Assembly: GCA_052327205.1 (NCBI GenBank)
Contig: JBMRGM010000043.1
Span: forward strand, 31,806,001 to 31,870,000
Source of the DNA: Somniosus microcephalus
Taxonomy: Eukaryota
Length of the DNA stretch: 64,000 bases
Direction of reading: 5' to 3'
Below, in pieces: positions 12,841 to 64,000 of this stretch; position 1 is the stretch's first letter, and the number at the start of each line of letters is the position of its first letter. A program made the translations under genes and the position numbers. The notes beneath the pieces are model-generated. The model was not told where the DNA came from and made no database searches. It saw only the letters and a program-made list of their open reading frames with translations.

Positions 12841-12898
12841 GGAGATATTTTAACGTATCCAATCTGAACATATTTTGTATTTCTCATTTATTTTTCAG

Positions 12899-16185: not shown

Positions 16186-16213
16186 TGGACCAGTATTAGG
16201 ACCAATGCTCTTT

Positions 16214-19218: not shown

Positions 19219-19224
19219 AACATT

Positions 19225-24964: not shown

Positions 24965-25066
24965 TGCAGATTCTCACAAACACGATCAGAGCCTTCGTTC
25001 TTACACTTTTCCTTATGGGTGCCCTGATTGCACTGGTTTGGGTCAATCTTCCCACCAAGAAACAAG
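24965..25066 (+). CDS. Gene 1 TM exon with Arg, intact
   Basis: VQILTNTIRAFVLTLFLMGALIALVWVNLPTKKQ; ttccag acceptor, gtgagt donor. Confidence 0.78.
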
Positions 25067-25294
25067 GTGAGTCATGTTTTACAAGCAGGTGATTGGCTAT
25101 ATAGTCACGTGAAGGGATTCAATGTATTTCATATTTAATTGCCACATTCAAATTGTCAGCATATGATTTGGGAAAGAGACGAGTAGTCTGCGTTGGAGAA
25201 AGCAAAGGTTGTTTGCAATGATGAGATCAGAACAGACAGGAGCCCAGTTATGGGGTGAGTTTGCTCGGTCAAGCGAATGTGTTCCCCTGTGTGC

Positions 25295-26368
25295 TGTAGA
25301 GATTCGAGTATCTCTGGTAAACAGGAACGAATGCAAACCAATATGGTGTGTATACCATGTTTAATTGGAGTTTAGCACGGAATATAACACACTAGGAATA
25401 CAGCAAAAACATACGACCGTGACAAGCAGCTGGTACCAGACCCTATTGGATAGACGGCTGGTGTGCGTGAATAGTTCTTTGTCTTCTGGCCTTTATCTCT
25501 CTCCCTCTGGGGCCTTCGATGGTGAGTGTGGGATCACTCTCAAACGTGTGTTCGACCAGCTTGTCGTCTCATTGCAACTTCTGCTCGGCTCACCCCTCCA
25601 CCGTCTGTGTAGGCAAGCACTCGGTGTGTCACTTTCATTCTCTTTTTAGAGGTGTGCCTGAGGCCAAGTTATTGACAAGACCATTTAACCTATAGATGTT
25701 CCTCTAAAGTCTCATCATCCTGTAACACATCATGTCCTTCATCCAATTGCCACTATTGTTCAATCTTTCTGAAGGTTCTTCCTTTGGAATTCGTGTCTTA
25801 GCTCTCTTGTCCCTCTCCTCCTTAACCCAGCATGTACAAGGGCCGACACAATCCCTGTTGTTCATGGCCCCAGCCAAAGCTGTCACACATTCACCAGTCA
25901 CTATTTCACCTTCATCTAGCCAACGGCCCATTCTAAGATGGATAATTCAACCTCCTCAAATTCCTTTCATTCTATGTCTTTTCCAAATTAATTTTTAATT
26001 AACTTTGCAAGCAGTTCTGCTAAACAAACTTCAAATTCTATCTGTAGAGATTATAATATGGTTATTAGTAACAATAGTCGAAACAAAGGTTGGGACTTCA
26101 CTGGCCAAATTAACAAAGTCAAAACCCAAAATTACATACAACAGATATAGCAGGCCTGGCTGGGCGATCCTATGGACCCCTGTGTGGAATGTTTATGCCT
26201 CACCTAATCTAACCGATTAAATTCATTTTCTCAAATTATAAGGCACGTTTTCCAGGAAAAGGAAACTTCATCAGTCACTCACTTCTCTCATGCCGAAACA
26301 TACAGCCATGTAAACACAGTATTATTGGTGTAGCCATATACATTTTTAGCCACCCCTAGTTTCTAACA
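25295..26368 (-). mobile_element. Solo LTR (about 1.07 kb)
   Basis: TGTAGAGA...TTCTAACA ends, 4-bp TSD gtgc, absent from copy 2; orientation tentative. Confidence 0.72.
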
Positions 26369-26651
26369 GTGCTTTTCAGAATAGGTATGCATCTGGGCAA
26401 GGGGCAGAACAATAAGTGGCAGCATCACTCGTGGTTAGTGTGAGGAGGTGATGTGGCTTAAAGGATTTGTAATTCACTATATGGGAACACCTTAAAGGTT
26501 TCTGCACGTCTTTTCTGCATTAATGCATTTAATGTACGTTTGTAAATATTTAGAATTGAGATGACTGAATATATTTGCTGTTAAACAAAGCCAACTGTAC
26601 AACAATATTTACTACAACTTGCTGAATTTGGTCTCTTCCTATTTTATCCAG

Positions 26652-26679
26652 ACAATTCTTCAAGAATTTCACAACTGGG
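26652..26679 (+). CDS. Gene 1 cytoplasmic exon 1 (DNSSRISQLG)
   Basis: atccag acceptor, gtaagt donor; paralogue of 54459. Confidence 0.7.
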
Positions 26680-29091: not shown

Positions 29092-29177
29092 GGAGACAAC
29101 TAGAAACAGACCTCCAGGTGAAGAGAAGTCTGCAGACAATTCCGAGTATGCAGCTGTGGAATCAGCGCAAAGCACCG
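29092..29177 (+). CDS. Gene 1 cytoplasmic exon 2 with SEYAAV motif
   Basis: aag acceptor, gtaagc donor; paralogue of 56472; read-through reaches a stop at 29201-29203. Confidence 0.68.
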
Positions 29178-39093: not shown

Positions 39094-39124
39094 ATGAAAC
39101 ACATCTGTTGCCTTCTGATCTTCT
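39094..39124 (+). CDS. Gene 2 leader exon S1 ([10 protein letters not shown])
   Basis: ATG plus hydrophobic codons, 31 nt, gtaagt donor; conserved at 9482 in copy 1. Confidence 0.85.
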
Positions 39125-42100: not shown

Positions 42101-45100
42101 TCTTATCTTTGTTCATGAGAGGGTCAATTGTCATAGTTCGGCACGCATAGACTGGTGGTAAATGTGGTGCTGCATGTTTTATGTCCCTGCCGAAGTCGAA
42201 TTTCACCCCCCAGTTATTTCCTCTTAGCAGCTGAGGTCAAATTTGAAGATGCTCTCAGTTCATGAAACATATTTTACATTGTCTTCTCTCTTGCAGTGCA
42301 AATTATTCATCAGGCGACAACACAAGGTATGATGACAATAATGTCCATTTTTGATAATCCAGTTTGTGGAATGAACGCTTCCAATTTATATCTACAGGGC
42401 AGCAGCAATCCAGCAATGGAGTAATTGTCAGCTGTTCGCCCGAGCGAAAAACTGACCTTCTGGACTCGCCACCTATGAGACATGCTCGAACATCATTTTC
42501 ATTGATTGAGTGGAAATGTAAAGTGGGCGGTTTCTCCAATGGTCGTCCAATCAGAACCCCAGATTTAAGCCTCAGCACCAAGCTTAATGTTTACCACAAT
42601 ATATTAAAGACAAAATGATTTATAAATTGGTCTGGGTAACTGCCAGCTCAGTCACCTGAGGATTGGAAGAGAGCAATCATAATTGAGTAATAAATGGATG
42701 GATAAATAGAGAGCTCTTTGATGAAGTAACAGCAAGTGCTGATGAAATGAGTGCTTAATGAACTTCCACATAACAGACCTGTGAGCAAATTTGAAACCCA
42801 TGTGAATAAGGGGAAGTGGCAGTGTGGATAAGAAATGGGCTGAGACTAAATGCAGAGACTAGTTATGAAGTGAATGTTCAGTGGTGTCTCGCAGATGTCT
42901 TTATTGGGTTCACTGTTCTGTCTGATAATTATATATCACCTGGATTTGGGTATACATGTGCACAACTACAAACCTTGCAGAATCATGAAGCTCGGAAATG
43001 TAGCAAGCATTGCGAAAGATAGAAAGAGACTTCAGAAAGAGAAAGACAGACGGCCGACGTAGGCAGATACAATATATTGCTGGAAATTGCAGAGGAAATT
43101 TACTAATATTGTACCAGGGACACGGGATTTCAGTTGCATGGAGAAACGAGGGCTGTTCTCCTTTGAGCACCGAAGTTTAAGGTGTGATTTGATCGAGCTG
43201 TTCAAAATCATGAAAGGTTTTGGTACAGTAAATAAGGAGACACTTTTAAATGTTATGTTAATTGTTATAGTTGAAACGCCTACCGGTGACAATGGGAGGC
43301 GATTGTGCCGCCCAATCTTTGGTCCTACTGAAAATGGTAGGGTGCTGAGTGTCTGCGTTAAAGCAATGGTAAGACTACCGACCCCAGTTCGAGACGGTTA
43401 CCACCCGATTTCACCAAGTTAATGTCACCTCTTAAATAGAAATTTCGATCAATAGACAGCCGTTAGGTAGCTCCCGGTTGGGACACTGAGTAGAAATACC
43501 CACTGTATTGACTACAGTAGATAGTGCATAGATTAGAAATTTCAATATTTCTAATCATAAATTCCATTTATTGTCTTTCTGCAGCTCCTGGGCCGGAAGT
43601 GCTGGTTAGTTACCCCAGCAGTGGTGTGGTAAAGGAAGGAGAGGAATTTAAGCTGCATTGTCGATACAGTGGCAAAGTTACTTCCACTCATTGGTTTAAA
43701 AATAAAGTACATTTAAATAAAACTCACAGTGAGTTTTATGAATCGCTTGCGGACAGTAGCAGTGGAGGCTCTTATCACTGTGCCCTGTTGTCAAACAAAT
43801 GGGAGAGGAGTGAACCTCTGGAAGTGGTCACCATCGGTAGGTGAACTTTGACACTTAAAATCATAGAAAATAGAAAAATCTACATTTATATGGCATCTTG
43901 CACGACCTCCGATTGCACTTCACAGGCAATTAAGTACTTTTCAATATAGTCACTGATGTAATGTGAGATAAGTGACAGCTAATTCGGGCAGAGCAAAGCT
44001 CCCACAAACAGCAGTGTAATAATGACCAGGTCATCTTTTCAATTCTATTGGTTGAGTGATTGAGCTTCCAATTATTTTTGTGGGAACTTTAACGCCCACC
44101 TAATAGGCGATACAGGGCCTCGGTATAATATCTCATCAAAAAGGCTCCGTTTCCTTCAATAATGACACCGGGAGTCTCTGGAGTGGGGTTCAAACCAACG
44201 CCTCACTATCGCAGAAGCGTTTGGGCAGCAAGTGAGCCACACCTATTGTTAGTTATTGACTGCTGAGTCAAACCGCTGGAAGTGGCCACCATCGGTCGGT
44301 GAACTTTGACCCACAGTCAGCTCAGCCTTTGTCCCGAAAAGTTAAGTTTTTAAAGAGGTCTCTCAGTAAATCGTAAGACAGTATATCAAACATGTTACAT
44401 ACTTGAACAAAATTGCCAAATGGTCACTGGGATGAAGCGTGTGGCGAGTCCACAAAGCTGAGGTCACTTTTTCCTCAAATCCCTTCAACCAGCTCTGTTC
44501 TAAACAATCCCAGCTCCTCTAGCCTCACCACACCTGATGAACAAATACCAGTCGTTCCTTGAGAGAGGGCCGAGTTTGTTGCTGATTGGTAGAATCGGAT
44601 TTCGAAGTAAAAGTTATTTGATTGACATTTGAAGGACCACATAAGGGGGTGTCAGCTGAACTTAATAAGGGACACGTGACTTTCTAATGCCACACTTGTC
44701 GCTGGGGCTTTTTGCATTATAGATGTGGTGTTCGTTACTGAAGTGATTACTATAGCTGCTCTTTAAAGGAAATAAATATAGGATGTCATACCTGTAGTTT
44801 AACATATTCCAGTTTGTGCTTACTTAATATTTCTTACATATTTTCAGCTTCTGATATGTTTTTAACTCTTGAAGTAAATCCAAGGGCCGCGCTGACAGGT
44901 GAAAGAATTATCCTGAATTGTTTGGTGTCTGACCAGAAAGGGAAAGGATACTTCCTGTGGTATCAGAAAGAAGAGATAATACATGGAACTTCTCAATCTC
45001 AGTACATCATAGCTAATGCAAAAATTGCAGATGAGGCATCTTACCGGTGTGAACGCAGAATAGGCTACAGGAAGTGGGTCTCACTGGAAGTAAACATCAC

Positions 45101-48100
45101 CATAGCAGGTTGGTCACTGGCTTTGTTGTTTTCCTCCGAAACGTGCTGCTTGTTAATTTGCTGAAAGATGGAAAACGATTCGAAGAATATTCTTTGGCTA
45201 GACAATTTCTGTTGAAATTGGTAAATATTGGCAAGTACTGGGAAAACATTACAAGCTGGGCACTGTAGGCAAGTCTCTGGTTCGCATGTGGCAAAATAAC
45301 ACACTCCGTTAACTCTAAGGGCCCCATGAATCCATAGGAGGGGAGGCCTCCATCTCCTGAGAACTATCGGGAAATGTCGTTGGAGGTCATTTGCGTTTCA
45401 TTTCCGTGCTCTCACGCTGCTGGGCGATTTCATGTGCATCCCCGTGCTCATATCACTAGGGCTGCATATGGGTTAGTAATAACAGTGTCGTTAGAATGTG
45501 GAACTCGCTCCCACAGGGAGTAGTTGAGGGAATTGCATTTAAGGTGAAGCTAGATAAACACATGAGGGAGAAAGGAATAAAAGTATATGTTGATGGGGTA
45601 GATGATGAAGGCTGGGAAGAAACACGTGTGGAAAATAAGCACCTGCATGGACTTATTGGGCTATCTGCTGTAAATAATGTGTACAATGTTCTTTGCGTCA
45701 GGAGGAGCTGTTCCGGTCTTCCACTAAATTTTCCTATCCATTTAGCTATGGCGGACCACAATAGAGGGGCCACCTGATAAACACTGGTGGTGGAGCTTTC
45801 GTCAGAATAATCTGCCAACAAAAGTCTTTTTGAGGATCCAAGGGCATCCTAAATAGAGAATATATTATACAGCTTTTTGACTTAAATACAATCACCGAAA
45901 CTCCCGCCTGCCGATCGTAGGTCCTGGGGGACTTTGAACTGCTAATTTTCAGCCGCAACCTGAACGTCCCATTTCAGGCTAGTGGCAGTGCTCCAGGGCC
46001 AAATGATGTGCGCCTGTGACTGCCGTATGCAAAGCAACGTAAGGCCATCCCAACTTAAACGGATTTGCTGCTAATGAATGGGAGATTGTAGCTGAGTCAG
46101 GCTTATAGCTGAGGCCTGGAAGATTTGGCGCACTTTTTCCATTATGTTCACAACGCACCTCTGGCACCCTGTGCCCGCTGGGCGTCTCAGAATGCAAAAT
46201 GAGCTGGATGCCCTCCTTACCGACTCTGGTGGGGTGGGTGGAATGCTCCTCAAAGAATCTGGCGGAATTTCCTTCTATTGAAATCAATGGATAGCATATA
46301 TGGCGGGTTCAGTATGCTATAACTGATCCTTTGCGCCGGATTTTCGATTCCCTTATCTGATTAGGCATTGCTTACCCGCTCTACCAACATAGATCATTTT
46401 CAGTGTTCCAACCTAGGAAGAGCTGGGCCAAATGGTGGGGAAGTGCTGCACGAGGAGGGCAATATCAATAAACCGCAATTAGAACCATCAGTTAATTCAT
46501 CACCAACTGTCCACTGCTTCCTTTCTGTTCTGTATTGGGCCCAAACTTGATTGGAGTTGGGATTGGGATTATATAACGTGTCCAATGTATTCGGGCTGTT
46601 GTAGAAGCAGTTCTCAGTTTGATTTAAGCATTTGTTGAACTAAACCACGAAATTCTGCTCCCGCTATTAGATGGCGATGTGGCCTTCCATGTCGACCCAC
46701 CTTCGGGTTTGGAAGGAGATGTTCTGATTCTGAATTGTCGGTACAGAAACTATTATTTGTGGAAAGATGTCGGTTTTTACAAAGGCAATAGAATAATCCA
46801 CTCAATGAAGTTGAATAATTGGAAAGCTCTGCATAGCATTAGAATGAATAGATCAAAAGAAAGCGGATCGTACCATTGTACTATTGACGATAAGATTTCT
46901 CGAAGTGTTCATGTTCAAGTTTATGGTATGTATGCAATAATTCAATTGGTGATATCCCTCTTTAAAATATATTCATCTTTAAGGTCCGAGAAGTTCTAAA
47001 TCTGTACAAAATTATACATAATTCTGTGATTCCGGAAAAATGTGTTCGCGTTAGTTCATAAGATGTTTATCTAACAACGTGCTACTTTAGCCGATATATA
47101 ACCCAGGGCGGGTCTCCTCCCGTGCCAGCACCAGCAGCTTTCTTTCTCCTCCCACCCCACCTCAGAGGTGAATTTGGCGGCTACCCCCATTACCACCATG
47201 TCACATCTAGAGGCTGACGGGGAGTTTGCTCCCAGGAAACCGAAATATGATGCTGCCTCTGTCCTTAACAACCACGATGAGGAGTTGACAAAAAGTACCA
47301 GCAGGTCCTCGTGAGCCCCTGGAACTTCAGTGGTGAGTCCGCTGACGGACTTTGTGGTAGGATAGAATAAGCAGTCTGCTCCTCTCCACTCTCTTTTGCT
47401 AGCATCACTTACGTGTCTGGCGTAAGCATCGTCACAGACTCCTAATAAACTATGGGAGCAGATTCCCTTGGATGCCCATGTCATCGCAGCGGGTGTGTTA
47501 TATCATCACTGATCCATCACCCTGGCCATGACAATCCGGAGTCTTTGTAATTTCAGATGCTGACAGCTGAGCGGGGGGCTGGCTGGGGACAGAGCGGTGT
47601 AGCTGTGAACATTTGTGGAGTTCACCGTGGTCATAGTATACGGTGAGATGCAACAGAGCATGGCTGAAAGAGAAAAGATCTATGGGAGGTTTCCTGCTGA
47701 AAGATAATTCTTGCCCAGCATGGAATTCCTGTTTCAGCAGAATATATTAAGTAGATTAAGTTCTCCGCAATCAAATAATCGAGAGGAAGTCCATAACACC
47801 CGCCCGCTCCAGTTTTCCACAGTACAGCTGCTGGTTACCATGAAGTATAGCCGCCCCTCGTGGCGATTCTTGGTATTGCCTTGCTCTTATTATCAATCAC
47901 TGCTAGGTGTTTAACTCAGTGATAGGATCCGTTATCTGTCAATCCAGATTCTGTTTTCACAGAACTCTTCGCCAAACCTAAACTGAGGACTGAGCCTGCA
48001 GTTGAAATATTTGAGGGAGACCAGTTAAAATTGATCTGTTTTGTTGAAACAATGGTGTCCAGTATTGGGCTGCAATACTCGTTTTACAAAAATGGCAAAG

Positions 48101-51100
48101 CTCTGAGCTTGAATGCATACAACAACTTTAATCTCACTGAGGCAGCTTCTTTGAAAGACTCGGGGACTTACCTGTGTGAAGCAAATGTTTTATACCGTGG
48201 TGTGAAAAAGAAGAGCAATGAGGTTTCCATTGTGATAAAAGGTAAGGACAACCAGCTGTAATTATTGTTCATCTTTCATTTAAACATTTCTTCATGTGAT
48301 TTATTTAAATCAACGTACCAGAGGAATCCATTCTGGTAAAGAAACATAGAAACACTGAAGCTAGGAGCAGCAGTAGGCCATTCGGCCCCTTGAGCCTGTT
48401 CCATGATTTAATGAGACCATGGCTGATCATCTAAATTCAGTACCCTGTCCCTGCTTTCTCCCCATATCCCTTGATCCCTTCCACCTTAAGAAATATATCT
48501 AACTCCTTCTTGAATATATTTAATTAATTGGCCTCAACTGCCTTCTGTGGTAGAGAATTCCATAGGTTCACCACTCTCTGTGAAGAAATTCCTCCTCATC
48601 TCAGTCTGAAATGGCTTACCCCTTATCCTTAGACTGTGACCCCTGGTTCTGGACTCCCCCGCCATTGGGAACATCCTTCCTGCATCTAGTCTGTCTAGTT
48701 CTGTTAGAATTTTATAAGTTTCAATGAGATCCCCTCTCATTCCTCTAAACTCTAGGGAATATAAGCCTAATCGATCCAATCTCTCATCATACGTCATTCC
48801 TGCCATCCCTGGTATCAGTCTGGTGACTCTTCGCTGCACTCCCTCCATGGCAAAAACATCCTTCCTCAGATAATGCGACCAAAACTGCACACAATACTTA
48901 AGGTGTGGTTTCGCCAAGGCCCTGTACAACTGCAGGAAGACATCCTTGCTCCTGTGCTCGAATCCTTTCGCTATGAAGGCCAACATACCAATTGCCTCCT
49001 TAACCACCTGCTGCACCTGCATGCTTACCTTCAGCGACTGGTGCACAAGAACACCCAGGACTCATTGCACGTCCCTTTTCCCAATCTATTGCCGTTCAGG
49101 TAATAATCTGCCTTCCTGTTTTTGCCACCAAAGTGGATAACCTCGCATTGATCCACATTCTAATGCATCTGCCATGCATCTGTCCAATCACCCAGCCCGT
49201 CCAAATCAACCTGGAGTTCCTCAGCATCCTGCTTACAGCACACACACACACCCAGCTTTGTGCCATCTGCAAACTTGGAGATATTACACCTAGTTCCCTC
49301 GTCTAGATCATTAATATATATTGTGACTATCTGGGCTTCTAGCGCTGATCACTGCGGTACCCCACTAGTCAATGCTTGCCACTCAGAAAAAGACGGGTTT
49401 ATTACAACTCTTTGCTTCCTGTCTGCCAACCAGTTCTCTATCCAAGTCCCAATCCCATGTGCTTTAAATTTGCACGGTAATCTCTTATGCGGGACCTTAT
49501 TGAAACCCTTCTGCAAGTCCAAATGTGCCACATTCACTGGTTTTCCCTTATCTGTTCTGCCAGTTATATCCTCAAAAAATTCCAGTAGATTCGTCAAGCA
49601 TGATTCACCTTTTGTAAAGCCATGTTGACTTTGTCCGATCTGGTCACTGTTTTCCAAGTGCTCTGCTGTTACATTATTCATCATGGAGTTTAGCATTTTC
49701 CCCACTTCCGATGTCAGGCTTACCGATCTTTAATTCCCCTTTTTATCTCTACTACCTTTTTTAAATAGTGGGGTTACATTAGCTACTCTCCAATCCATGG
49801 GCATTGTTCCAGCTTCTATCGAATTTTGGAAGATGACCAGCAATGCATCTACTATTTCTAGGGCCATTTCCTTAAGTGCCCTAGGGTGTAGATTATCAGG
49901 CCCTGGGGCTTTATGAGCTTTCAATGCCATCAATTTGCCTAACACCATTTCCCTACAAATAGTGATTTCATTCAATGTCTCCCTCTCATTAGACCCTATG
50001 TTCCCCGACATCTCTGGGATGTTAGTTGTGTCCTCCTTTGTGAAGACAGTACCAAAGTATGTATTTAATTGGTCTGCCATTTCTTTTTTCCCCATTGTAA
50101 ATTCCCCTGATTCTGACGGCATGGGACCTACGCTTGACTTCACCAATCTTTTTCTCTTCACATATCTTATGACGCTTTTACAATGAGTGTATACGTTCCC
50201 TGCAAGCTTACCCTCATATTTTATTTCCCCCACTTAATTAATCGCTTTGTCTCCTTTGCTGAATCCTAAACTGCACCCAATCCTCATGTTTGCTGCTTTT
50301 TCTGGCCAATTTAGATGTCCTCTCATTTGATCTTATGCTATCCCTAATTTCCCTTGTTAGCCACGGTTGAGTCACCTTTTTGTTTTATTTTTATGCCAAA
50401 CTGGGATGAACAAATCCTGTATTAAGATCTACCCACAGGTTTAACACGTAATAAATCAATTTTGAGTGCAATCTGTTTAAATCATATCGCCACGTGGCAC
50501 TTATACAATCCATACATTTGCGAAAAACTGCAAAGTTTGATGACCAGTGCCCACTCCCAGTGGGTAATATTAGCTTCCTGTAAGAATGTGGAATGGGCGG
50601 TATTTGATTTGCCTCCAATTATATATCCCGCCAGTTTTTGCCTCCCAACATTTTAATGGATAGGGAAATCGTGCATGGTCTACAGTTGGCACAGGATACG
50701 ATGCCGCGCATTATACCCCACAGTCATGAGGTGAAGTTACCTCCTCTGTTTCTGTCTGGCTGAATCAGCACAGGGCAGTAACCGGTCAGGAATAGCTGGG
50801 AGATAAATCAGACAATGCCTCATTTCTTACTAGTCCCGGAAATCTTTTATAGTTGAAAACGCTTGGGTGAAATTTAAAGTTGAGAGCACAGAAGCGGATC
50901 AGCAGACAATGGAATAGAAATTGGCCTGTGTTTATAAAGGGATGACCAATCTGCTACCATGGGTGTTGCACCCAAACCAAACTTGAATTTTCACCTCCTT
51001 CCATTTCAGTAAATGGGGAGGAAAAACGCTTGAAGTCACTAAAGTCTGTGCCTCTGAATCCCTCGGGATTTCTTTTCCATTCAGTTAGATCCAGCCAATC

Positions 51101-54100
51101 ATAACTCTAACTTTGCATTTTCAATGGAGCAGGCAATCTGAACACAATGTGACAGTTATCGATCCTGTGTCAGCAGTGGATTTCAGAAGAATTGTAGTGT
51201 CAAGAACTGAGCTTTTAACAATAACGTCCCAAAATTTGCAGCTGCTGCAACAATGATGAAGGAGACGTCACTATCTAACGCCTGGGCGCAAAGCATCGCC
51301 TGGGCTGAGAGCAGGGATCAAATTCTGGAATAGGGGAGCATTGGGATTTTTTGGAATAATCTCAGAGGACCCACAGGATTTGCCTTCCATTCATTGTTCT
51401 GCTGCACAAACACGGAAATTGTTAAGTCTGTGATAGACGAAGAACCTGTCAAATCCCTATTTCATTCTATTTTATAGAGGCCTTCTCCAACCCTACGTTG
51501 ATGGCTGAGTGTGACGCTCAATTATTGGAGGGCCAACAGTTAAAACTCGCCTGCTTCGTTGAAATATTTCGATCCAATTCTTCTTTGAGATTCGTATTCT
51601 ACAAAGATGGACAACCTCTCAATTCAGCAGCAGAACACAACTATTACATCAAGGAGACATCTAGGCCGGACGATTCGGGGATTTACCGGTGTGAAGCAAC
51701 TACTTTGAACAGTGAGGTGAAGAAACTGAGTAATGAGGTTTCCGTTTCAGTCAGGCGTGAGTAAAATTTAAGATAATTGATTATCACTTTTAAAGAGAAC
51801 CTGAAAATCATAGAAAACGGGCAGCGCTGATTCAACAGATCACCAGGGAAGTAAAATGGTTTGCAGCAGGGTAGACTTGAGGTACTGGGACTAACACTAC
51901 CGGGTTAGCCATGGCTAAGGGTTATTTCATTAGTGTTGTTTACATGCCAATTGCGAGATAGGGCGATTATGGACAGATATTCTCTGATTACAAAGACAGG
52001 AAGGAGGGATCAGTAATGTATAATTATCATTAAAGCAGGAGGGTAGCGCTTAGAAGAACCTTCTTTACATAGACGAGTGCTGGAACATAGAATGATTTGT
52101 CAGGTGGAGCGGTGGAGTTAGTTACCATTGCATTTAGGTTTGAGTATTGTTTATGGTACTGGAACAGTGCATGGCACCTGCCTTTGAATAGCAATGTGAA
52201 GGGCAACCAAGTGTGGTGTATGATGAGCGGATAATTCCACATCCTGCATTTACACCATCTTGTAAAAATTCAAAATACCCCGAGTTGTTCCTTTTAAAAT
52301 CAGTGCAAGTTGTACTGTTGGCTCATTGTCACCACCTCATTGAGGCCGGTGACAAACGAACGCTGCACATGAGTGTTTCAGTGCATAAATTTCATACCAG
52401 AAATAATCATCATGTTTGATAGCACCAAAATATTATCGTCCACTTGCTATATTCCCGGTTTGATATACAATCCTGTTGAAAACGTTCAATTTTGGATGAA
52501 AACCTATTATTTGGAATTATGTGCAGTAACTTTAGTTAGAACTAATATTCGATATCACTGATGGTACAGCACAAGGGCAAATCTGAACTAAATATTTTCA
52601 CCAATGCATTTGCAGCTGATCAGCAATTCTTGCACTAGTCTGATTTACATATCTGATTTAATCTATGTTAGTACTCAAAATAATTTCAATTTTGAATTGT
52701 CACTTGCAGAATTAGTTCTCTACATCTTCAAAATTATTTGCTTTCCTGTAGCTGGTGCTTCTCTCACTTCCATTAACGACAAAACTGAGATTTCAGCGGG
52801 GGACCGTCTCGTTCTCCAGTGCCTGGTGAAGAGAGGCACTGCACCACTTTTCCTCTGGTACCTGAACAACCAACAGTTAGGAAACAACAGCGAATCTTAC
52901 CAATTAAACACGGACGGGAGTGAGCTCATTATCAATTCATTCCAGATAGGCCACGGAGGTCGGTATCACTGTGTAGCGACCTATGAAGGAATATATAACA
53001 CAACCAGCAATTATATCAACGTCACGATACAAGGTAACAGAACATTGTGTTTGATCTGATTTTATGAATTACTTTTCTTTCGGCAAAGTAAACAGTATAT
53101 TGCATTTGCATGCTTTATATTCAGAAATGACACATCGCAGCTCAGGTGAAAATTTATAAGAATAGTTTCTGATTAAGTAATTGAACTTAACTAGGTGAAA
53201 CTCGTTCTGAAATAAACTAGCAATATTTCCCACGGGCGCATTTGAAGTTGAAATCGATAAGGATACAAAGCAGAGCCATGATCATAAAGCGACAGTGAGG
53301 GGAATATTGGGAGGGATGAGCAAAAACCTAGCTGCAAATATGGTTCCTGTGAGGATGTTTGAAGCAGGCTGTAGTAGATGTGGTTTAGGAGAGTAGAGCC
53401 AAAGCACTTTCACTCACTAATTGTCTGACAAAGGAATCGTGTACTCCCAATAGGCCACAAATCAATTGACTGAGGGCTGTATGGATGGAGATAAAATTGG
53501 AGGAGATTTTTTTAAATGATAAGGAACACGAGGACCTGGTGTTTAAAGTTGTTTCCTTCGAGTACATGAAGCTAGATGGGAAAAATGGCGAGTAGGTTTT
53601 GGTGTGGGACAGGGACGTCTGGTTTAGTTGTATTTTGTGGACGGCGGCATTAGGAGCCCAGAAAGTAAGGCATTGTAATAATCGAGTCTAGAGCTGACAA
53701 ATCCAGGAATCAGTGTTTCAGAATGACGGGGCTGAGCTGGGTAGAAATGGAATCCATTCAGTGCAGATTTTAAAAACAATTGTAATTCTTCCTATGGTGC
53801 GAGGTTGAATTTGTACTGCTTGGAACGGTTTGATGTGATTCATGGAACAAGTTTGTTTGATTCCAGCACAAAGTCAAACAACCGCGATCACAGCAACAGT
53901 TATTCCAGTTTTTCTGATCGCTGCCCTGATTGCACTGGTTTTCTTCAAACTTCGGAAGAAGAAACAAGGTGAGCAGTGTCTTACGGGCAGGTGATTGGCT
54001 CGACAGCCACGGGATGGGATTCATTACCCTCCATATTGAGTTGCATCATTCGAAATGTAGCAGAATGATTTGAGAGGGAGACGCACATTTTGGGCGGGAG

Positions 54101-57100
54101 TGCAAAGAGTTATTTACATGGATGAGTTCGGTTGATGAATTCAGCTTACAGGTATAAATCTGTGCGAGGGGGAGAATAATAACAGGCACGTGGTTCGGAA
54201 GAGAATGTGAAATCTGCTAGATGATTTGTAATGATTGGTGATATCTTAAAGTTTTCCGTAAGTTCTTTGTGCATTCGTGCTCTGTTTTATTTAATTATTG
54301 ATATAATAAATGCACGTGCGTAACAGTTTTTAATTATTAGCAATGAATATGCTTACTGTCTGAAGATTATTTAAGGAAACCCAAACCATCTCTAGGCAGT
54401 AAACGTGCCATAGTTATTGCACAACTTGCTGAAATATGTCTCTTCCTATTTTATCCAGAGAATTCCTCAAGTGTTTCACAGCCGCAGGGGTAAGTCTGCA
54501 AAATCTTTCTATTAGTCCGTTGTAACTATATCCATGATTTTACTGAAAGCTGAAATTCCTCTTTGGCATGGGTGCAAATTATACGCCCCCAATTGGAACT
54601 GAATATTGGACTGGACGTAGACGGTCGCTAGTTGCACTACAGCCAGTTATGCCTCCGCGTACAAATGGAATTACACCCCATAGTCTCTGATATAGCTCCG
54701 ATGGAGACGGTTGGAGTGTTTAATGGCTAAATATTCTATTTTTTTGTTCTTGCTTTTTAGTTTATCAACAGGTCAGTCAGCCTAACATAGGTATTGGAAA
54801 CAATTATTAGGGAAATAATAAACATTTATTTGGAAAGACATTGTTTAATCAAGGAGATGCAGCATGGATTTGTTAAAGGAAATCATGTGTGACTAACTTG
54901 ATTGAATATTTGATGAGGTAACAGACTTTTGATCAAGATGGTGTTGTAGATGTTGTATATATTGACTTGCGGAAGGCAGTCATCCGAGACTTGTTAAAAA
55001 AGATGTAAACCCATGGGATTAAGAGAAATGGGCTCGGTGACAGGAAGCAGAGAGTGGTGGTGGATGGATATTTCTCAGACGGGGAGGTGGTTTTGCAGTG
55101 GTGTTCCCCAACAGTCATTTTGGGGTCCAGTACTCTTCGCAATTTTAATGACTGACCTAGACAAAGGTGTAGGGAGCAACAGTGTAAATCTGCAGATGAT
55201 ACGTAATTTGGCCAGGTAGTAGATTGTGATGAGGATCCTTGTAGTCTTCAGGGTGACATAGACAGGAATGGTTAAATGGGCAGAAGCATGGCAGCTGGAG
55301 TTCAACCCGGAACTGTGAAGTGATGTAATTTTGGAGAACTAATCTGGAAAGACAATATACAACAATAGCCACGATTTTGAAAAGTGTAGATGAGCCGAAA
55401 TAATTTGGTGTGCATATACACAAATCCTTAAATATGACAAGGCAAGTGGATAAGTTGGTTAAAGAAGCATATGGATCACTTGTTTTTTTTTAAATAGCGA
55501 CTTAGAATGTAAAAGCAAAGAGAACATGCTAGAACTTTATGAATCAGTGTTTAGGGCTCAGCTGGACAATTCATGGTAGCAACTCATCAAGGCTTCTTCG
55601 GCAGCAGCTCCAAAACACGCAAACTCTTCCAACTAGAAGGACAAGGGCAGCAGGGGCATGGGAACACCACCACCTCCAAGTTGCCCTCCAAGACACACAC
55701 AATTCTGACGTAGAAGTATATCGCCGATCCTTCATCGCCGCTGGGTCAAAATCCTGGAACTCCCTCCCTAACAGCACTGTGGGAGTACCTTCACCACACG
55801 GACTGCAGCGGTTCAAGGCGGCGGCTCACCACCACCTTCTCAAGGGCAATTAGGGACGGGAAATAAATGCTGGCCTTGCCAGCGACGCCCACATTCAAAA
55901 TACAAATAAAACCACACTTCAGGAAACATAGTAAGAGGCAAAGAAAGGATACAGAGGATGCTTACAGGATATTACAAGGGATCAGGGACTTTATTTACGA
56001 GCAGTGGTTGGCTAATTAGGACGTGGAACAGAGAAGGTGAGCCATTAGAGATTTTCAAGGGGATGAGAAGTTTTGTTAGTGCAGATAGAGAAACAATATT
56101 CCCTCTTGGTCAATAACTAGAGGTCAAAGATTTAACATCATTGTATAAAGATCTTGAGGGGAGATGTGGAGAAATATTTTTCAATGAGAGAGTTGTCGGG
56201 ATGTAGAATGCTCTACCTGAAAATTTGGTGGAAGCGACTTCCATCAATAACTTTAGCAGTGAGTTGGACGGATCGTTGACTATGAGGACCTTTTTGGGGC
56301 TGCGGACAAAAGCCAGGGATATGGGACTAAGGACGATTGCTCCTTCAAGGCGTTCTACGTTCTGTATATCTACTTCTGAATGTTTCTATGATTCGGTAAC
56401 ATTTCGTTAAAAGTGAACTTTGCGTTGTTGATGCATGAATCCTTAATATCTGAGAACATTTTCGTGCACAGGGTGGCAACTGAAAATAGATCTCTAACCC
56501 CGAGTGAAGAAACATCTGCGACCAATTTCGAGTGTGCAGTTGTGGGATCAGGCCGAAATACTGGTAAGCGTGAACTGACACATGTGAAAAATATGGTAGA
56601 TTGTTCATGGTAACATTGGTTCTGCCGCTAACCCATCATATCTCCGGTGGAATATCGGTAATAATTCAGGGAAACGACCATTTCTGCATGACTTGCGGCA
56701 ATATTCCAATGACGTTGTGACAGGACATGGTGGAAATCACCCATGGACATTGGAGTTTTTCATCTGCAAGCATTCAGCATTCTCTCATGTTAGATTTCCA
56801 TCTTATTGTCTGGGCATTAAGCATCGCATGGGTCGAGCATACGCAGGGAAATAGTTTGGGGCGCTTGACACGGTTCTATTGAACCATGTTAGTGGAAAGA
56901 AAAGCTGGTGGGTTCCGTAAAGGATGTGCCTGCTGCTCCAGCAGACTGAGCAGTCTGCGCTCTTTGCAGGTGACGCTAACTGTTCCTACGCCAAAACAAA
57001 AATCTACCCCTATTCCCTTTTAATTTTGAATTCATTATTTCCTCTACACCTCATTTTTCTTTTTTCTGATGGTAGTGGTTCTCAATCGGCCGGGATTGAT

Positions 57101-60100
57101 AGGTGGCCATCTGGGTGCTAGTCCAAAGGTTTTATCTCGGAACCTGATAATCAGACATAAGGAACAATATCTTGAGTACTAAATTGATTTGGGGAACTGT
57201 CTCCTCCCCACCATTACAAATCAACTTTCCAAGCAAAGGATGTTGGAACTGGTCCTCAGCCCGATATCTGGGTGCCTGGAATGGAGAGAATGAGAGAATG
57301 TGCTTCTCACCATCACCCTGTTTACAAGCAAGCGACTCAGCCCAGCCCTATGGCTTGGGACCAAAACACTTCATGAATTTGCTCACGGGCCGATGGATCA
57401 GCTTGTATTGATCAGGATAATTAGTTGATTAATTTTAATACCAGTAAACACAGCAGTAAATTTCCAATCATGAATTGTAGGTTGTGTCTGGTATCTAAAG
57501 GCTTCCTTAATTAACTGTCATTGACAGTTTCCATTTTTTCTCTCTACAGCTTCTATTTCCAATCAGATAATCTACAGTGTAGTCCAAGACAGGAAATCTA
57601 TGGAAGGTACGTATTCGCCTTGTTACTTGGCTGGAGGGATTTGTATATCTCAAAAGGCTTCATAACTACTGTGAGGGTAGCGACTGTCTTCAGACTGTGA
57701 GAAGTAATCTGGGAAGGGTCTGAATCGATTGATGCATTATAGGACTGGCACCACAATACCAGTATTTGTAAATGACAAAATCACTATAGACACTTTGTAA
57801 GTTCCATCTCTTGGGAGTAGTATCCTTAGAACCTGCACAGAAACTCCCCTGTTCTGGTTTTTAGTTAACTATTGTGTGGAACATCGTAATTGGCCGGACT
57901 CTTAATGTCACCATAAAATGCAATGATGATAACAAATCTTTAATATAACTCGATCGATACAGTTGAAGGCAAATAACGTGTACATTTGGCAAACATAATC
58001 CATTCTTGGAAATTTAAATCAATGCTGTGCAATTAATGGTTATATAACTGATGGGAATGACATGCTCTAATCACATGCACTATATTCATGTTATGGATAC
58101 TGATACGATATTCTCAATTCATTATCGCTGTCAATTAATTTATACCAAGCAATCAGTCAGTCTAGCTCTCTAAATAGGTATCCATGTACCCATCAATATC
58201 TTTCTATCTATGTGTCAATCTATCTTTATATCTATCTTCCAAATATCTATGTATCTTTCTATCTATCACTCAATGTCTTCCTCCCTATATCTCTATATAT
58301 ATCTATCACCTCTCTATCATCTATATATTAATCCATCTTAATGAAGCGTCCTTATTGTCTTGTTTTCTCTTTTTGTTTCTGTTCAGATGATACCGGAACT
58401 GCTGCTCATTTAGTGTATTCGGAGGTCACGATCATAAAGTCACGAGGCTGTGGTAATTTCTGTCAATTGTTCGCAGCTGTTGCTAAGCGAGATGATAATT
58501 ACAGTTCTAGATAATGTTGGGATATTCCTCTGCTTGATATAGTGGGAATGAGGCACATGGACTGTAAACTAAATAGTGGGGGGGGGAGGGTTCAGTTGAA
58601 GGGGAATTTAGAAAGTCAAACAGAAAGGAGGAGGTAATAGTGCAAGGTAGCGATAGGGGTAATGATAACCAGAGATTAACAGGAGGAGACAGAGCATACA
58701 GACATAAACGTGCACCTGCAAATAGTTTCAGTGTAGTTAAAAATGGTATAAAAATAAATAAATGCTCTTTAACTGAATGCACGCAGCATTCATAACAGGA
58801 TAGATGAGTTGCGGGCACAAATCGAAATAAATGGGCATGATCTGATAGCCGTTACAGAGACGGGGTTGCAAGGTGACCAAGGCTGGGAACTGAATATTTA
58901 AGGGTATTTGACATTTTGGAAGAATAGGCAGAAAGCAAAAGGAGTTGGGTAACTCTTTTAATAAAGGATGTGATCAGTGCAGTGGTGAGAAATGATATTG
59001 GCTCAGAATATCAAAATGTAGAATTAATTTTAACGGAGATAAGAAATAGTAAGGGAATTAAATCATTAGTGGGAGCAGTATATAGCACTCCTAACTAGCT
59101 ACACTGTAGGACAGTGTATAAATCAAGAACTAATAGGGGCTTGTAAGTAAGGTACTGCGATAATCATGGGTGATTTTAATATTCATATAGATTGAACAAA
59201 TCTAATTGACAAGGTTAACCTTGAGGACGAGTTCATAGAATGTATTCGGGATGGTTTCTTAGAACAATACGTTGTGGAATCAACCAGGGAGATGGCTATT
59301 TTAAATCTGGTAATGTGTAATGGGGCAGGATTAATTAATGATCTCCTGGTAAAGGATCCTCTTGTGAAGAACGATCATAGCATGATGAATTTCTAATTCA
59401 GATTGAGGGTGAGAAACTTGGGTCTGAAACTTAAATAAATTCAATTCCAAAGGTATGAAGAAAGAGTGGGCTAAAGTAGACTGGGAAAATAGATTAAAGT
59501 GTAAGACGGTAGATAGGCAGCGACAGAAATTTAACGAGATTTTTCATAACTCTCAGCAAAGATTTATTGCAGTGTGAAAGAATGACTCCACGAGAAGGAT
59601 GACCATCCCGGGCTAACTGAGGAATTTAAGCGTGGTATCAAATTGAAAGAAAATGCATAAAATGTTGCAAAGATTCGTAGTAGGTGAGAGGATTGGGAAA
59701 TTTTTGAAAATCAGCAAAGGATGACTAAAAAATTAAAAGAGGTAGAAGATAGATTATGAAAGTAAACTAGCAAAAAATATAAAAAAACAGAGACTAAGAG
59801 CTTCTACAGGTATATTAATGGAAGATAATAGCTAAAGTAAAACTTGGTCCCTTAGATGTTGGGACTGGGGAATTAATAATGGGAAACAGGGAAATGGCAG
59901 AGACATTGAACAAATATTTTGTATTGGTCTTCACGGTGGAAGAAACAAAAAGCATCCCAATGATAATTGATAATCAAGGGGCTATATTCACAATATATAT
60001 CTAAAATTTGGGTGAGGGTCCCAAATGTAATATTTCCAAGTTTGCTAACATCACGAATCTAGGTGGGATTGTGAGTTGTGAGGAGGATGCTAATAGGCTT

Positions 60101-63100
60101 CAAGCTAATTTAGACAAGTTCATTGAGTGGGCAAATACATGGCAGCTACAGTATAACGTGGATAAATCTGAAGTTATCCATTTCAGTACGAAAAACAGAA
60201 AGGCAGAATATTATTTAAATGTTGATAGATTGGGAAATGTTGATGTACAGATGGACTTGGGCGTCCATGTACACCAGTCACTGAAAGCAAACATGCAGGT
60301 GCAGTAAGGAAGGGAAATTGAATTTTGGCCTGCATTGCAAGAGGAGTTGAGTACAGGAGCAAGGATGTACATTTATACAGGGCCTTGATGAGACCTTGGG
60401 AGTACGGTGTGCAGTTTTGTTCTCCTCACCTAAGAAAGGATATACTTACGATAGAGGGAGTGCAGCGAGGGTTCGCCAGACTGATTCCTGGGATGGCAGG
60501 ACTGTCGTCTCAGGAGAGATTGGGCTGACTAAACTTTATTCACGAGAGTTTAAAAGAATGTGAGTGTATCTCATTTAAACGTATAAAATTCTGACAGGGC
60601 TAGACAGACTGGATGCAGGGAGGATGTTTCCCCCGGCTGGTGGGTCTAGAAGGAGTGATCACATTCTCAGGAAGGCGTACATTCAAGGGTCTTAAATGAA
60701 GTGGCTGCAAAGATAATCGATGCATTGGTTGTAATCAACCAAAATTCCCTGGATTCTGGAGAGCTCCCAGCGGCTTGGAAATTCGCAAATTTAACGCTCC
60801 TATTGAAGAAAGGAAAGAGGCAAAAAGCAGGAATCTATTGGCCAGTTAGCCTTACATCTGTCATTGGGAAAATGATGGAATCTATTATTAAGGAATGAAT
60901 AGCAGGACATATAGAAAATCATGATTTTCTATCAGAGTCAACATGGTTTTATGGAAGGTAAATTGTGCTTGACAAATTTACTAGAGTTCTTTGAGGATGT
61001 AACGAGCAGGGTGGATAAAGGGGAACCAGTTGATGTAGTGTATTTGAATTTGCAGAAGACATTCGCTAAGGTGCCACATAAAAGGTTACTGCACAAGATA
61101 AGAGCTCATGGGGTTGGGAGTAATATTTTAGCATGGATAGTGGATTGGCTATCCAACAGAAAACAAAGAGTCGGGATAAATGGGTCATTTTCCGGTTGGC
61201 AAACTGTAACTGGTGGAATGCCACAGGGATCAGTGCTGGGGCCTCAACTATTTACAATCTATATTAATGACCTGGCCAAATTTGCTGATGATACAAAGGT
61301 AGATGAGAAACAAGTTGTAAGGAGGACACAATTAGTTTGCAAAGGGGTATCGATATGTTAAGTGAGCGGGCAGAAATTCGGCACATGCAGTATAATGTGG
61401 GAAAATATGAGATTATCCACTTTGGTAAGAAATCGAATGAAACAAATTATTATTTAAATGGGGAGAGACTACCTAATGCTGCCGTACACAGTGTCCTCGT
61501 ACTTGATACACAAAAGGTTAGCATGCAGGTACAGCAAGTAATTAGGAATGCAAATGGAATGCTGGCCTTTATTGGCAGGGGGTGGAGCATAATAGTAGGG
61601 AAGTCTTGCTACAACTGGAGTATTGCGTGTAGTTCTGGTCCCCTTATTTCAGGCGGGATACACTTGCATTGGAGGCAGTTCAGAGAAGGTTCACTAGGTT
61701 CATTCCTGAGATGAAGGGGTTGTCTAAAGAAGAAATGTTCAGCAGGTTGGGCATTTACGCATTGGAGTTTAGAAGAATGAGAGTTGGTATTATTGAAACA
61801 TATAAGATTCTGAGGGAGCTTGACAGGGTAGATTCAGGGAGGATGTTTCCCCTCGTGGGGGAATCTAGAAGTAGGGGACAAAGTTACAGGATATGGGAGC
61901 GCCCTTTTAAAACGAAGATGAGGAGGAATTTCTTCTCTCAGAGGTTGTGAATCTTTGGAATTGTCTACCCCAGTGAGCTGTGGTGGCGGAGTCATTGATT
62001 GTATTCAAGGCGGAGATAGACATATATTTGAGCTACAGGGGAGTTAAGAGTTTTGAGAAGCAGATGGGAAAGTGGCGATGAGGCCAAGATCAGATCAACC
62101 ATGATCGTATTGAATGGTGGTGCAGGTTCGAGGGGCCGAATGGCCTACTCTTGCTCCTATTTATGTTTCTTATGAAATATCACGTAGATGTTATTAGCAG
62201 GTGTAATTTTAACCTAACTCAGCCTGGTCGAAAAGGGACTGGATCTGGTGAAATGCCTGTTGTCAATCGCACCCAATTTTACTCTCCTACTACAAGGGAG
62301 AGTAAAGTCCATTGGGTGTACACCCACCCCGAAATTGTCCCGATCCCGTCAGTTTACTGCCAGGGTGGGTGATATTAAAATGACCCCGGATTAGGCTGGA
62401 TTCATCTAATTCTATTCATCAACTTCCCCAGATTGTTGCCTTTATAATGCATCTGCTTTATTTACAGATAATGATGATGGCGCCTCAGGAAGGAAACAGG
62501 TAAGTTATCTTTAGAGGGGAAAGATGCTGGTGAGAAATATCGCGACCAATGCGAGTAGATTTCTAACTAATGTTCGCAAAGTAAACTGTCGGCGATCAGT
62601 TTTAGCAATGGCCCGATTGAAACACACTCCCTTATCGAAAAGATATTCGTTTGGATTGTGAAAGGAGCAGCACATTCGCTGTCCACCCGTTATGGTCCCA
62701 CACTGCCCAAAAGCAATTTTAACCCCGATGTCTATTATTCTCTATCATTGGGACAGATATGCTGCTTGCGACTTGGGCTTAAAGAGGGTGATGACGATCT
62801 TTCACACAGAATGGAAAACACACATTTTTAATTTGCAATGATTTGAATTAAAAATAGAATCCGGCGGTTCCAATCGACGCCAGTTTTTAGCCTGGGCCCA
62901 ATTTCTGAAATCTAAATCATTCTGTCTGCAAAGGTCACTGCTAAACTGGCTCCACACCACTAAAGTAGCCCCTGATTAGTAATTTAAATCCAGACCATTA
63001 TTTTAAAATTCAGTTGCCAGTTGTTTACAGAATAATAAAGAACATTGTAGTTTTGTTCCACCGAAAGATCATTGCAAATATGGGTGCAGTAGCTTCGTGG

Positions 63101-64000
63101 TTACATAACTGGATCAATAATCCAGAGGTCTCGACTAATGGTCCGAAGACATCAGTTCAAATCCCAGCACTGGCAGCTGGGGAAAGTAAACTCAGTTAAT
63201 TAAATACATCTGGAATAAATAGCTCATAACAGTAATGGTGACCATGACACACTCTGGTTGTTGTAAAACCCAACTAATGTCCTCAAGGAAGGAAATTGGC
63301 TGTCCTTACCTGGTCTACCCTGTATGTGACTCCAGACTCACTAGCAATGAGGTTGACCCTTAACTGCCCCTAAAATGGCGGAGCAAGCCAATCAATTTTA
63401 CCAAACTGCAAGAAAAGGCATTAACCCTATGGGAACACCTCCCCCTCCAAGTCACACACCATCCTGACTTGGAAGTATATTGCCGTTCCTTCATCACTGC
63501 AGTGTCAAACTCCTGGAACTCCCTCCCTACCAGCACTGTGGGAGCACCTTCACGACACAGACTGCAGCGTTTCAAGAAGGCGGCTCGCCACCATCTTCTC
63601 AAGGGCAATTAGGAATGGGCAATAAATGCTGGCCTTGCCAGCGACGCCCACATCCCGTCCATGAATAAAAAATTATCATCGCTTGTTTAAATTTAGTCGG
63701 TGGTTTATTCATTGCTCGTTTCAATCCAACCATTTTATTTTGATTTTTAACTATAAAAGTAAATTAATAGAGGAATTATAAGTGAAATTGTGTGAGCTCA
63801 GCCAGTTAATTGTCAGTAGTTTTGACCATACTGTAAATCTGGCGATATTGAATTGGCCATCCATTATCCATCTCTCCCGACTTCCCTTCCACTGAAATCA
63901 CCACTGATTCTCTCTCGCCAGCTGTGCACCATCACCTGAGACAATTTCAGCCCCATATTCTTTAATTCCAGGATAACAAGATTGGTCCCAGCGACTATTG
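39094..64000 (+). CDS. Gene 2 (whole model): FCRL/LITR-like inhibitory Ig-superfamily receptor with 6 Ig domains, TM and ITIM tail; 3' end runs off the window
   Basis: 15 exons with GT-AG sites and matching phases: 39094-39124, 42297-42326, 43585-43836, 44848-45108, 46671-46925, 47963-48241, 51478-51756, 52752-53033, 53867-53968, 54459-54489, 56472-56563, 57550-57606, 58387-58452, 62468-62499, 63972 onward. The first 14 total 2049 nt (683 codons) with no stop. Ig exons are phase 1-1 with FCRL-type motifs. Confidence 0.85.
39690..40370. repeat. GA-rich low-complexity tract
   Basis: Expanded counterpart of 10080. Confidence 0.85.
41430..41815 (+). mobile_element. tRNA-derived Deu-type (SacSINE1-like) SINE
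   Basis: A and B boxes, gccgtctttttggatga core, tail similar to 11255. Confidence 0.72.
42297..42326 (+). CDS. Gene 2 leader mini-exon S2, 30 nt ([10 protein letters not shown])
   Basis: ttctctcttgcag acceptor, G|gtatga donor, phase 1-1; conserved at 12078. Confidence 0.85.
43585..43836 (+). CDS. Gene 2 Ig domain 1
   Basis: APGPEV...[11 protein letters not shown]...HWFKN...SGGSYHC...SEPLEVVTI; ttctgcag acceptor, gtaggt donor. Confidence 0.9.
43870..44240 (-). mobile_element. Deu-type SINE, reverse orientation
   Basis: Reverse complement of the same head and tail. Confidence 0.6.
44848..45108 (+). CDS. Gene 2 Ig domain 2
   Basis: [10 protein letters not shown]...GERIILNC...FLWY...DEASYRC; ttttcag acceptor, gttggt donor. 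Confidence 0.9.
46671..46925 (+). CDS. Gene 2 Ig domain 3 (FCR D2-like)
   Basis: [23 protein letters not shown]...VGFYKG...ESGSYHC; tag acceptor, gtatgt donor. Confidence 0.88.
47963..48241 (+). CDS. Gene 2 Ig domain 4 (FCR D3-like)
   Basis: ELFAKPKL...EGDQLKLIC...LQYSFYKNG...DSGTYLCEA...KKKSNEVSI; cag acceptor, gtaagg donor. Confidence 0.92.
48341..50420 (-). mobile_element. CR1 LINE, specific to copy 2
   Basis: ORFs 49730-50233 ([19 protein letters not shown]), 49349-49705 ([15 protein letters not shown]) and 48534-49046. Confidence 0.93.
51478..51756 (+). CDS. Gene 2 Ig domain 5 (FCR D3-like)
   Basis: EAFSNPTL...EGQQLKLAC...FVFYKDG...DSGIYRCEA; tag acceptor, gtgagt donor. Confidence 0.92.
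52752..53033 (+). CDS. Gene 2 Ig domain 6 (membrane-proximal)
   Basis: GASL...[22 protein letters not shown]...GGRYHCVA...SNYINVTIQ; tttcctgtag acceptor, gtaac donor. Confidence 0.88.
53867..53968 (+). CDS. Gene 2 transmembrane exon (uncharged)
   Basis: [34 protein letters not shown]; ttccag acceptor, gtgagc donor. Confidence 0.92.
54459..54489 (+). CDS. Gene 2 cytoplasmic exon 1 ([11 protein letters not shown])
   Basis: atccag acceptor, gtaagt donor, phase 1-2; paralogue at 26652. Confidence 0.82.
54765..56340 (+). mobile_element. Decayed CR1 LINE with a nested insertion
   Basis: QHGFVKG and GVPQ motifs; interrupted at about 55575-55905. Confidence 0.8.
55575..55905 (+). mobile_element. 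L2/CR1-type LINE 3' end
   Basis: [14 protein letters not shown]...[12 protein letters not shown] plus tail ggccttgccagcgacgcccacat; same family at 63430. Confidence 0.75.
56472..56563 (+). CDS. Gene 2 cytoplasmic exon 2
   Basis: [30 protein letters not shown]; cag acceptor, gtaagc donor, phase 2-1; paralogue at 29092. Confidence 0.8.
57550..57606 (+). CDS. Gene 2 cytoplasmic exon 3 with ITIM IIYSVV
   Basis: Polypyrimidine tract plus cag, gtacgt donor; [19 protein letters not shown]. Confidence 0.82.
58387..58452 (+). CDS. Gene 2 cytoplasmic exon 4 with ITIM LVYSEV
   Basis: Long pyrimidine tract plus cag, gtaat donor; [22 protein letters not shown]. Confidence 0.82.
58510..62172 (+). mobile_element. 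Long decayed CR1 LINE (APE and RT) with a second CR1 fragment at about 59985-60675
   Basis: LNARSI...DLIAVTET endonuclease start near 58775; RT ORFs 60701-61950; 3' tail at 62150. Confidence 0.92.
62200..62388. mobile_element. Short palindromic MITE
   Basis: ggtgtaattttaa and ttaaaatgacccc ends, hairpin interior. Confidence 0.55.
62468..62499 (+). CDS. Gene 2 cytoplasmic exon 5 ([11 protein letters not shown])
   Basis: tttacag acceptor, gtaagt donor, phase 1-0, in frame. Confidence 0.7.
63083..63670 (+). mobile_element. SINE-like element followed by an L2/CR1-type 3' end
   Basis: B-box gttcaaatcc; 3' part matches 55680-55895. Confidence 0.65.
63972..64000 (+). CDS. Gene 2 probable next cytoplasmic exon (DNKIGPSDY...), truncated by the window end
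   Basis: ttctttaattccag acceptor; phase 0 matches the previous donor. Confidence 0.5.

Follow-up and report, generated by a model that had tools for sequence, protein, structure and literature searches.

Which lineage of leukocyte receptor does a six-Ig-domain gene of the Greenland shark, Somniosus microcephalus, represent, and where in the genome does that lineage lie? The accessible text of Akula et al. 2014 (PMC4016189) reports that sharks have neither FCRL nor FcR-gamma nor C2-only LRC genes. A review of June 2026 (PMC13337447), in its accessible portion, describes sharks as being without Fc receptor-like molecules and asks how they manage antibody-dependent phagocytosis. Judged by sequence, FCRL, FcR-gamma and C2-only LRC genes are all present in this shark genome. 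The window analyzed here is a stretch of 64,000 nucleotides of contig C43 (JBMRGM010000043.1, positions 31,806,001-31,870,000) in a genome of 6.45 Gb. The best explanation of it, to which we assign a probability of about 0.72, is that it carries an intact 725-residue gene, likely an inhibitory leukocyte receptor of the FcR/FCRL type, belonging to a shark and ray family of predicted paired receptors that occupies a region matching the mammalian leukocyte receptor complex.

All 15 exons of the gene were located, each of the 14 introns is bounded by GT..AG, and the exons joined by their coordinates give 725 codons without a stop. The product consists of a split leader, six Ig domains each encoded by a phase 1-1 exon, an uncharged transmembrane (TM) segment and a cytoplasmic tail with three ITIM-type motifs. 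The in-frame 15-exon model with a neutral TM, proposed by the sequence-only reading, is thereby borne out, as is its inhibitory-type tail: the two motifs it named, IIYSVV (Tyr640) and LVYSEV (Tyr661), are present in the window, and the last exon, whose stop codon at window-equivalent 64098-64100 is 100 bases past the window edge, adds a third ITIM-type motif, VTYATV (Tyr696), and a terminal YENL (Tyr719). The features are as follows.

9482..29177, + strand: upstream paralogue within the window, with a TM of the arginine type (NTIR) and three out-of-frame Ig exons
39094..39124, + strand: exon 1, 31 nt starting at the ATG and encoding the first half of the signal peptide, conserved in paralogues
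42297..42326, + strand: exon 2, 30-nt leader mini-exon
43585..43836, + strand: Ig1, weakly FcR D1-like (Pfam Ig_2; PDB FcγRIII D1)
44848..45108, + strand: Ig2, FcR D1-like (PDB FcγRI, best stretch D1)
46671..46925, + strand: Ig3, FcR/FCRL D2-like (PDB FCRL5 D2; in tree with FCRL D2-type domains)
47963..48241, + strand: Ig4, FcR/FCRL D3-like (PDB FcγRI, best stretch D3)
51478..51756, + strand: Ig5, FcR/FCRL D3-like (PDB FcγRI, best stretch D3)
52752..53033, + strand: Ig6, membrane-proximal, nearest to the last domain of frog FCRLs by scores and tree
53867..53968, + strand: TM exon, uncharged type
54459..54489, + strand: tail exon 1
56472..56563, + strand: tail exon 2, FECAVV (Cys)
57550..57606, + strand: tail exon 3, ITIM-type IIYSVV
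58387..58452, + strand: tail exon 4, ITIM-type LVYSEV, kept in shark relatives
62468..62499, + strand: tail exon 5
63972..64000, + strand: start of the last exon; VTYATV, YENL and the stop lie in the following 100 bases

Tail exon 2 has a cysteine (FECAVV) in this gene and its near-identical copies, whereas most paralogues and relatives have a tyrosine (FEYAVV). An exon-like stretch with an in-frame TAA at 54761-54790 was left out of the model because it reads as the start of an old LINE-like fragment, is missing from some paralogues, and is skipped by seven named shark and ray relatives that align across the tail; it could act as a cryptic exon. A 34-base duplicate of the end of the Ig1 exon with its donor site lies inside the next intron (44271-44304) and could permit alternative splicing. 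The introns at 48250-50590, 54760-56430 and 58700-62270 are filled with high-copy LINE- and SINE-like repeats, and a search for tRNA genes found none.

Five of the six Ig domains pass the Pfam Ig cut-off, Ig3 falling below it (E = 0.0085). In the structure database the best cellular matches of Ig1 to Ig5 are FcγR, FcεRI and FCRL proteins. Ig1 matches FcγRIII D1 (E = 3e-5), with two other Ig-repeat proteins, one of them a tail protein, ranking higher; Ig2 matches FcγRI with D1 as the best stretch (E = 5e-8), Ig3 matches FCRL5 D2 (E = 0.005), and Ig4 and Ig5 match FcγRI with D3 as the best stretch (whole-sequence E = 8e-13 and 2e-12). Ig6 matches FCRL5 and contactin about equally. CD22 and PECAM1 appear only at E values of 0.005-0.007, with PECAM1 at 0.007 for Ig5. 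Because the PECAM1 chain matched spans D1-D2 alone, the domains were also scored one by one against 82 FCRL, 41 PECAM1, 13 turtle LRC and 8 LITR-like reference domains. FCRL was the best match for all six domains, above PECAM1, LRC and LITR-like references, in a comparison biased toward FCRL by references fetched with a shark D3 profile and by their excess over PECAM1 (82 to 41); LRC references scored low. With the whole protein, blastp gave 181-192 bits for frog FCRLs, 95 for whale FCRL5 and 83 for teleost PECAM1, and a first homologue search with Ig4 returned only two whale FCRL5 proteins. By best match, therefore, the ectodomain is composed of D1-D5 subtype Ig domains in the order D1-D1-D2-D3-D3-proximal, weakly so for Ig1, and the order originally read from motifs agrees with both the structure-database and the pairwise results. 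Of the FCR/FCRL/LITR lineage named at the same time, the FcR/FCRL part is supported; the LITR-like reference, a single protein whose label was assigned within the analysis, scored lower for all six domains.

Domain phylogeny gives a more divided picture. Ig3 groups with frog and chondrostean D2-type FCRL domains (96/84) in a tree whose bootstrap had not converged and from which 40 of 143 domains (six proteins) were left out, and Ig6 groups with the last domain of frog FCRLs (90/81). For Ig4 and Ig5 the best tree has PECAM1 D3/D4 as the neighboring domains (86/70, unstarred), an FCRL sister group not being rejected (p-AU 0.32), and a two-domain tree, which includes three mis-paired reference rows, rejects neither of the two sister groups (p-AU 0.25 and 0.34). 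Ig1 and Ig2 receive no placement in the domain trees. The family stands apart from LRC-type (LILR/KIR) domains in every tree, with 100/100 in the two-domain tree. The refuting condition set by the sequence-only reading, clustering with PECAM1, is thus avoided only in part: the trees side with FCRL for Ig3 and Ig6, and place Ig4 and Ig5 about equally well beside PECAM1.

The gene is one of many. A genome search with Ig4 gave 119 matches among 150 scored candidates, all on C43, at 25.3-25.5 and 30.3-31.9 Mb, and all 40 scored matches of the TM exon likewise lie on C43, so that the family has at least 40 membrane exons; by hand count, 25 of these matches are at 88% identity or above and 15 at 80-83%. 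Every copy found has a second leader exon of 30 nt. Among 16 TM exons read directly, in a tally drawn from part of the C43 cluster, 10 are uncharged with long tails, and the other six combine short tails with an arginine early in the helix. An open frame from the leader to tail exon 2 is found in one of the six arginine-TM genes, the other five being broken or without Ig exons, and the last exon of these genes was looked for and not found. A true NxxR is present in only one arginine TM, in a broken gene; most read TAIR or TTIR. The upstream paralogue at 9482..29177 is likely a pseudogene. A divergent FcR-type gene with a clear D1 exon and also D2-like and D5-like exons occurs three times on C43 (25.27-25.29, 25.63-25.66 and 30.27-30.29 Mb), and its domains are nearer to mammalian FCRL D1/D5 than those of the main family. 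The main cluster contains repeat units of about 70 kb, and the stretches at 25.27-25.33 and 30.27-30.33 Mb are near-identical at a distance of 5 Mb; each could reflect recent duplication or an assembly effect. At 31.874-31.899 Mb the next paralogue is broken off after Ig6 by an assembly gap of 500 N, past which degenerate LRC-type exons lie at 31.895-31.899 Mb.

Relatives were sought with a profile of 16 D3-type exons, and 15 of the top 150 proteins were close. The 10 named ones come from Heterodontus, Stegostoma, Heptranchias, Scyliorhinus, Chiloscyllium, Cetorhinus, Carcharodon and the ray Narcine, and carry automatic names, seven Fc receptor-like and three PECAM-like; the RefSeq shark models called 'Fc receptor-like protein 2/3/5' or 'PECAM-like' thus belong to the same family under automatic names only. 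The shark relatives are 35-54% identical over most of their length and have the same tail motifs. The next tier, 10 named proteins from frogs, sturgeon and paddlefish, holds seven FCRLs, two hemicentin-like proteins and one IGSF1-like protein. The gene had been taken for that of a cartilaginous fish, and its nearest named relatives are indeed from sharks and a ray; with close proteins in seven sharks and a ray, the family is elasmobranch-wide and already in automatic annotation. Other shark and ray proteins, automatically named DMBT1-like, combine LRC-type Ig domains with scavenger-receptor cysteine-rich domains.

TTYH1, LENG8, CDC42EP5 and PRPF31 are named as LRC neighbors in the accessible text of PMC6557307. 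On C43 a Tweety gene lies at 26.9-27.1 Mb, and human TTYH1 is the only structure-database match of its tested exon. The contig also has PRPF31 (16.3 Mb), a LENG8-like SAC3/GANP exon (26.27 Mb) and a CDC42EP gene (26.38 Mb), the last two being assigned to LENG8 and CDC42EP5 by inference from their position and family match; another LRC marker, CNOT3, sits on C28. The focal family flanks the LENG8-, CDC42EP- and TTYH1-like genes. An Ig exon at 25.234 Mb on the same contig matches PirB, LILR and KIR, and of its matches, to which all 150 scored out of 720 candidates belong, about 100 lie on C43 between 21.5 and 42.5 Mb, 33 on C40 and 10 on C39 by hand count. A profile of 12 such exons finds PirB at the top, followed mostly by LILR, KIR, OSCAR and NCR1, with FCRL5 second by summed score; in the tree the C43 LRC-type exons join turtle LILR/OSCAR/IGSF1-like domains (98/93), and an LRC-style arginine TM exon lies at 32,021,435 (32.02 Mb). 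By sequence, the very large LILR/KIR-type array of C43 at 21.5-42.5 Mb is apparently a shark leukocyte receptor complex. Another expanded family of multi-Ig genes occupies C40 (3.9-52.3 Mb) and C39, and in the tree its domains form the sister group of the LRC-type clade (99/95).

The family is not linked to the placed markers of the 1q21-23 block, with separate contigs being possibly parts of one chromosome: an FcR-gamma-like (FCER1G) TM exon (10.607 Mb), MPZ and nicastrin (NCSTN), which mark the mammalian Fc-receptor locus, are on C40 at 10.6-12.6 Mb, and PRCC is on C41, apart from the family on C43. The second multi-Ig family shares C40 with these three genes. Of the 58 genome matches of whale FCRL5 D3, 56 are on C43, and neither C40 nor C41 has any. 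No position was obtained for ARHGEF11, and a genome search with SDHC gave no match. A CD247-like exon was seen on C14. In Heptranchias and Heterodontus, FcR-type and LRC-type proteins lie on equal-sized contigs (1,238,652 and 27,249,576), which suggests that FcR-LRC linkage is conserved in both. The sequence-only reading had contained neither the arginine-TM partners nor the position inside an LRC-syntenic region.

Set against known systems, the gene shares with mammalian FCRL and FcγRI the domain types (D1, D2, D3 and proximal) and their order, a split leader and a multi-exon ITIM-type tail. It differs in its identity of about 24-35%, in its two D1-type and two D3-type domains, in a second leader exon of 30 rather than 21 nt, and in linkage of its family to LRC markers instead of FcR-gamma, MPZ and nicastrin. 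According to the accessible text of PMC2413239, only a fraction of Xenopus genes have the 21-nt exon; the FCRLs of Xenopus show the split leader, come in paired TM types and associate with FcR-gamma. The Xenopus XFL genes, as portrayed there, are also a large, domain-shuffled paired family with repeated D3 domains and both uncharged and arginine TMs, and of the non-shark proteins compared over the whole length, frog FCRLs match best; XFLs, however, are linked to SLAMF8, IGSF9 and DUSP23 and have the true NxxR TM in place of the shark pattern. LRC receptors (LILR, KIR, PIR, OSCAR and CHIR) share the genomic neighborhood, the paired organization and an arginine early in the activating TM, but the focal Ig domains belong to another branch and the LRC-type genes are their neighbors. 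Teleost LITRs are likewise expanded paired receptors with FcR-like D1 and D2, but are without D3-D5 in the account available from PMC2413239, whereas the focal gene has two D3-type domains.

We consider it quite unlikely that a PECAM1/Allergin-1-like gene, adhesive or inhibitory, expanded in sharks alone to give this family, whose FCRL likeness would then derive from shared D3- and D5-type domains. Six Ig domains, a split leader and a multi-exon ITIM tail are the PECAM1 plan, the best D3 tree puts the shark domains with PECAM1, several relatives bear PECAM-like automatic names, and one exon of a divergent neighbor gene scores best against PECAM1. Yet PECAM1 (CD31), a single-copy gene located elsewhere, scores lower than FCRL for every domain, Ig3 and Ig6 group with FCRL domains, PECAM1 and Allergin-1 are not known to have paired activating forms that would correspond to the arginine-TM partners, and C21 has a PECAM1-like gene of its own at 69.90-69.94 Mb, which includes an exon of the PECAM D1 type. 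Best match and synteny speak against orthology of the focal gene to PECAM1: five of seven teleost PECAM1 matches in the genome, including the best, are on C21, and the second best is on C43. C21 also carries another Tweety and CDC42EP pair, and a second gene similar to the PECAM1-like one lies about 120 kb upstream of it (69.78-69.94 Mb). Unlikely, too, is that the focal copy is an intact-looking silent duplicate, or that its three near-identical copies are partly an assembly duplication. The focal copy shares 99.7% and 99.6% identity with the other two over 25 kb, and many paralogues are broken, but the copies are 60-87 mismatches apart with different neighbors, and the frame and all splice sites of the focal copy are intact. 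Expression bears on the same point through two RNA runs with the same species label, tissue not given, of which 24-31% each was read. At 80% likeness, 56 and 45 reads fall on 50650-54860, a region for which no splice-junction reads of the focal gene were listed in the parts read; one run has 20 near-identical reads, most of them in intron bins, as would suit a silent copy. Reads that differ at many positions map to one strand of the Ig5 and Ig6 exons, a pattern consistent with paralogues being transcribed at a low level. LINE- and SINE-like intron repeats draw most RNA reads.

An inhibitory FcR/FCRL-type receptor would be expected to work as follows. Once the outer domains bound a ligand, the three ITIM-type tyrosines would become phosphorylated, and the phosphorylated tail would, by established ITIM biology, recruit SHP-1/SHP-2 or SHIP and so damp activation. 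Arginine-TM paralogues may signal through FcR-gamma, whose TM exon is present in the genome, as established FcR-gamma biology would predict. They would thereby balance the inhibitory receptor, as the accessible text of PMC2413239 shows for Xenopus XFL2. As to the ligand, we predict with roughly even odds a variable one, either a microbial surface or a polymorphic self molecule. A genuine inhibitory Fc receptor, with shark IgM, IgW or IgNAR as its target, would differ from this in the ligand alone and is compatible with the preferred reading of the gene; we regard such an Fc ligand as possible but doubtful. Ig2-Ig3-Ig4 repeat the D1-D2-D3 order of FcγRI and FCRL5, and a 1988 paper by Haynes is reportedly titled 'Fc receptor for shark IgM'. 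FcγRs hold Fc with a tryptophan sandwich motif at the D1-D2 junction, where in our alignment the shark protein has a glycine in place of the first tryptophan and a tyrosine near the second. Among distinct intact exons, including those from broken genes, dN/dS is 0.93-1.17 in Ig2-Ig4, against 0.49-0.56 in Ig1, Ig5 and Ig6 (about 0.5 in Ig5-Ig6). This fast divergence of Ig2-Ig4 among paralogues and the missing first sandwich tryptophan favor a variable ligand over Fc. Ig binding is, moreover, a derived specialization in the account accessible from PMC2413239.

We found no published description of the shark family in the searchable literature, PMC3964593 included, outside which most subscription papers lie. 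The family itself is already known to annotation pipelines; what is notable and new is its paired organization and its position inside an LRC-like region, in a lineage from which both had been reported missing. A study by Wang et al. 2021 is said to treat LRC and FcR regions in fish and may bear on this novelty.

It has been proposed that the FcR and LRC families share an origin (PMC2413239, accessible text), and the finding that genes of the two types are physically interleaved is directly relevant to that proposal. We tentatively suggest, at somewhat less than even odds, that sharks keep an ancestral interleaved complex of FcR/FCRL and LILR/KIR genes around TTYH1 and LENG8, that both families date from the first jawed vertebrates, and that the transfer of FCRLs to the chromosome of FcR-gamma took place in bony vertebrates only; the shark IgM receptor could be among the members. 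The C43 family provides defined candidates for Ig binding, missing-self recognition or pathogen recognition in sharks.
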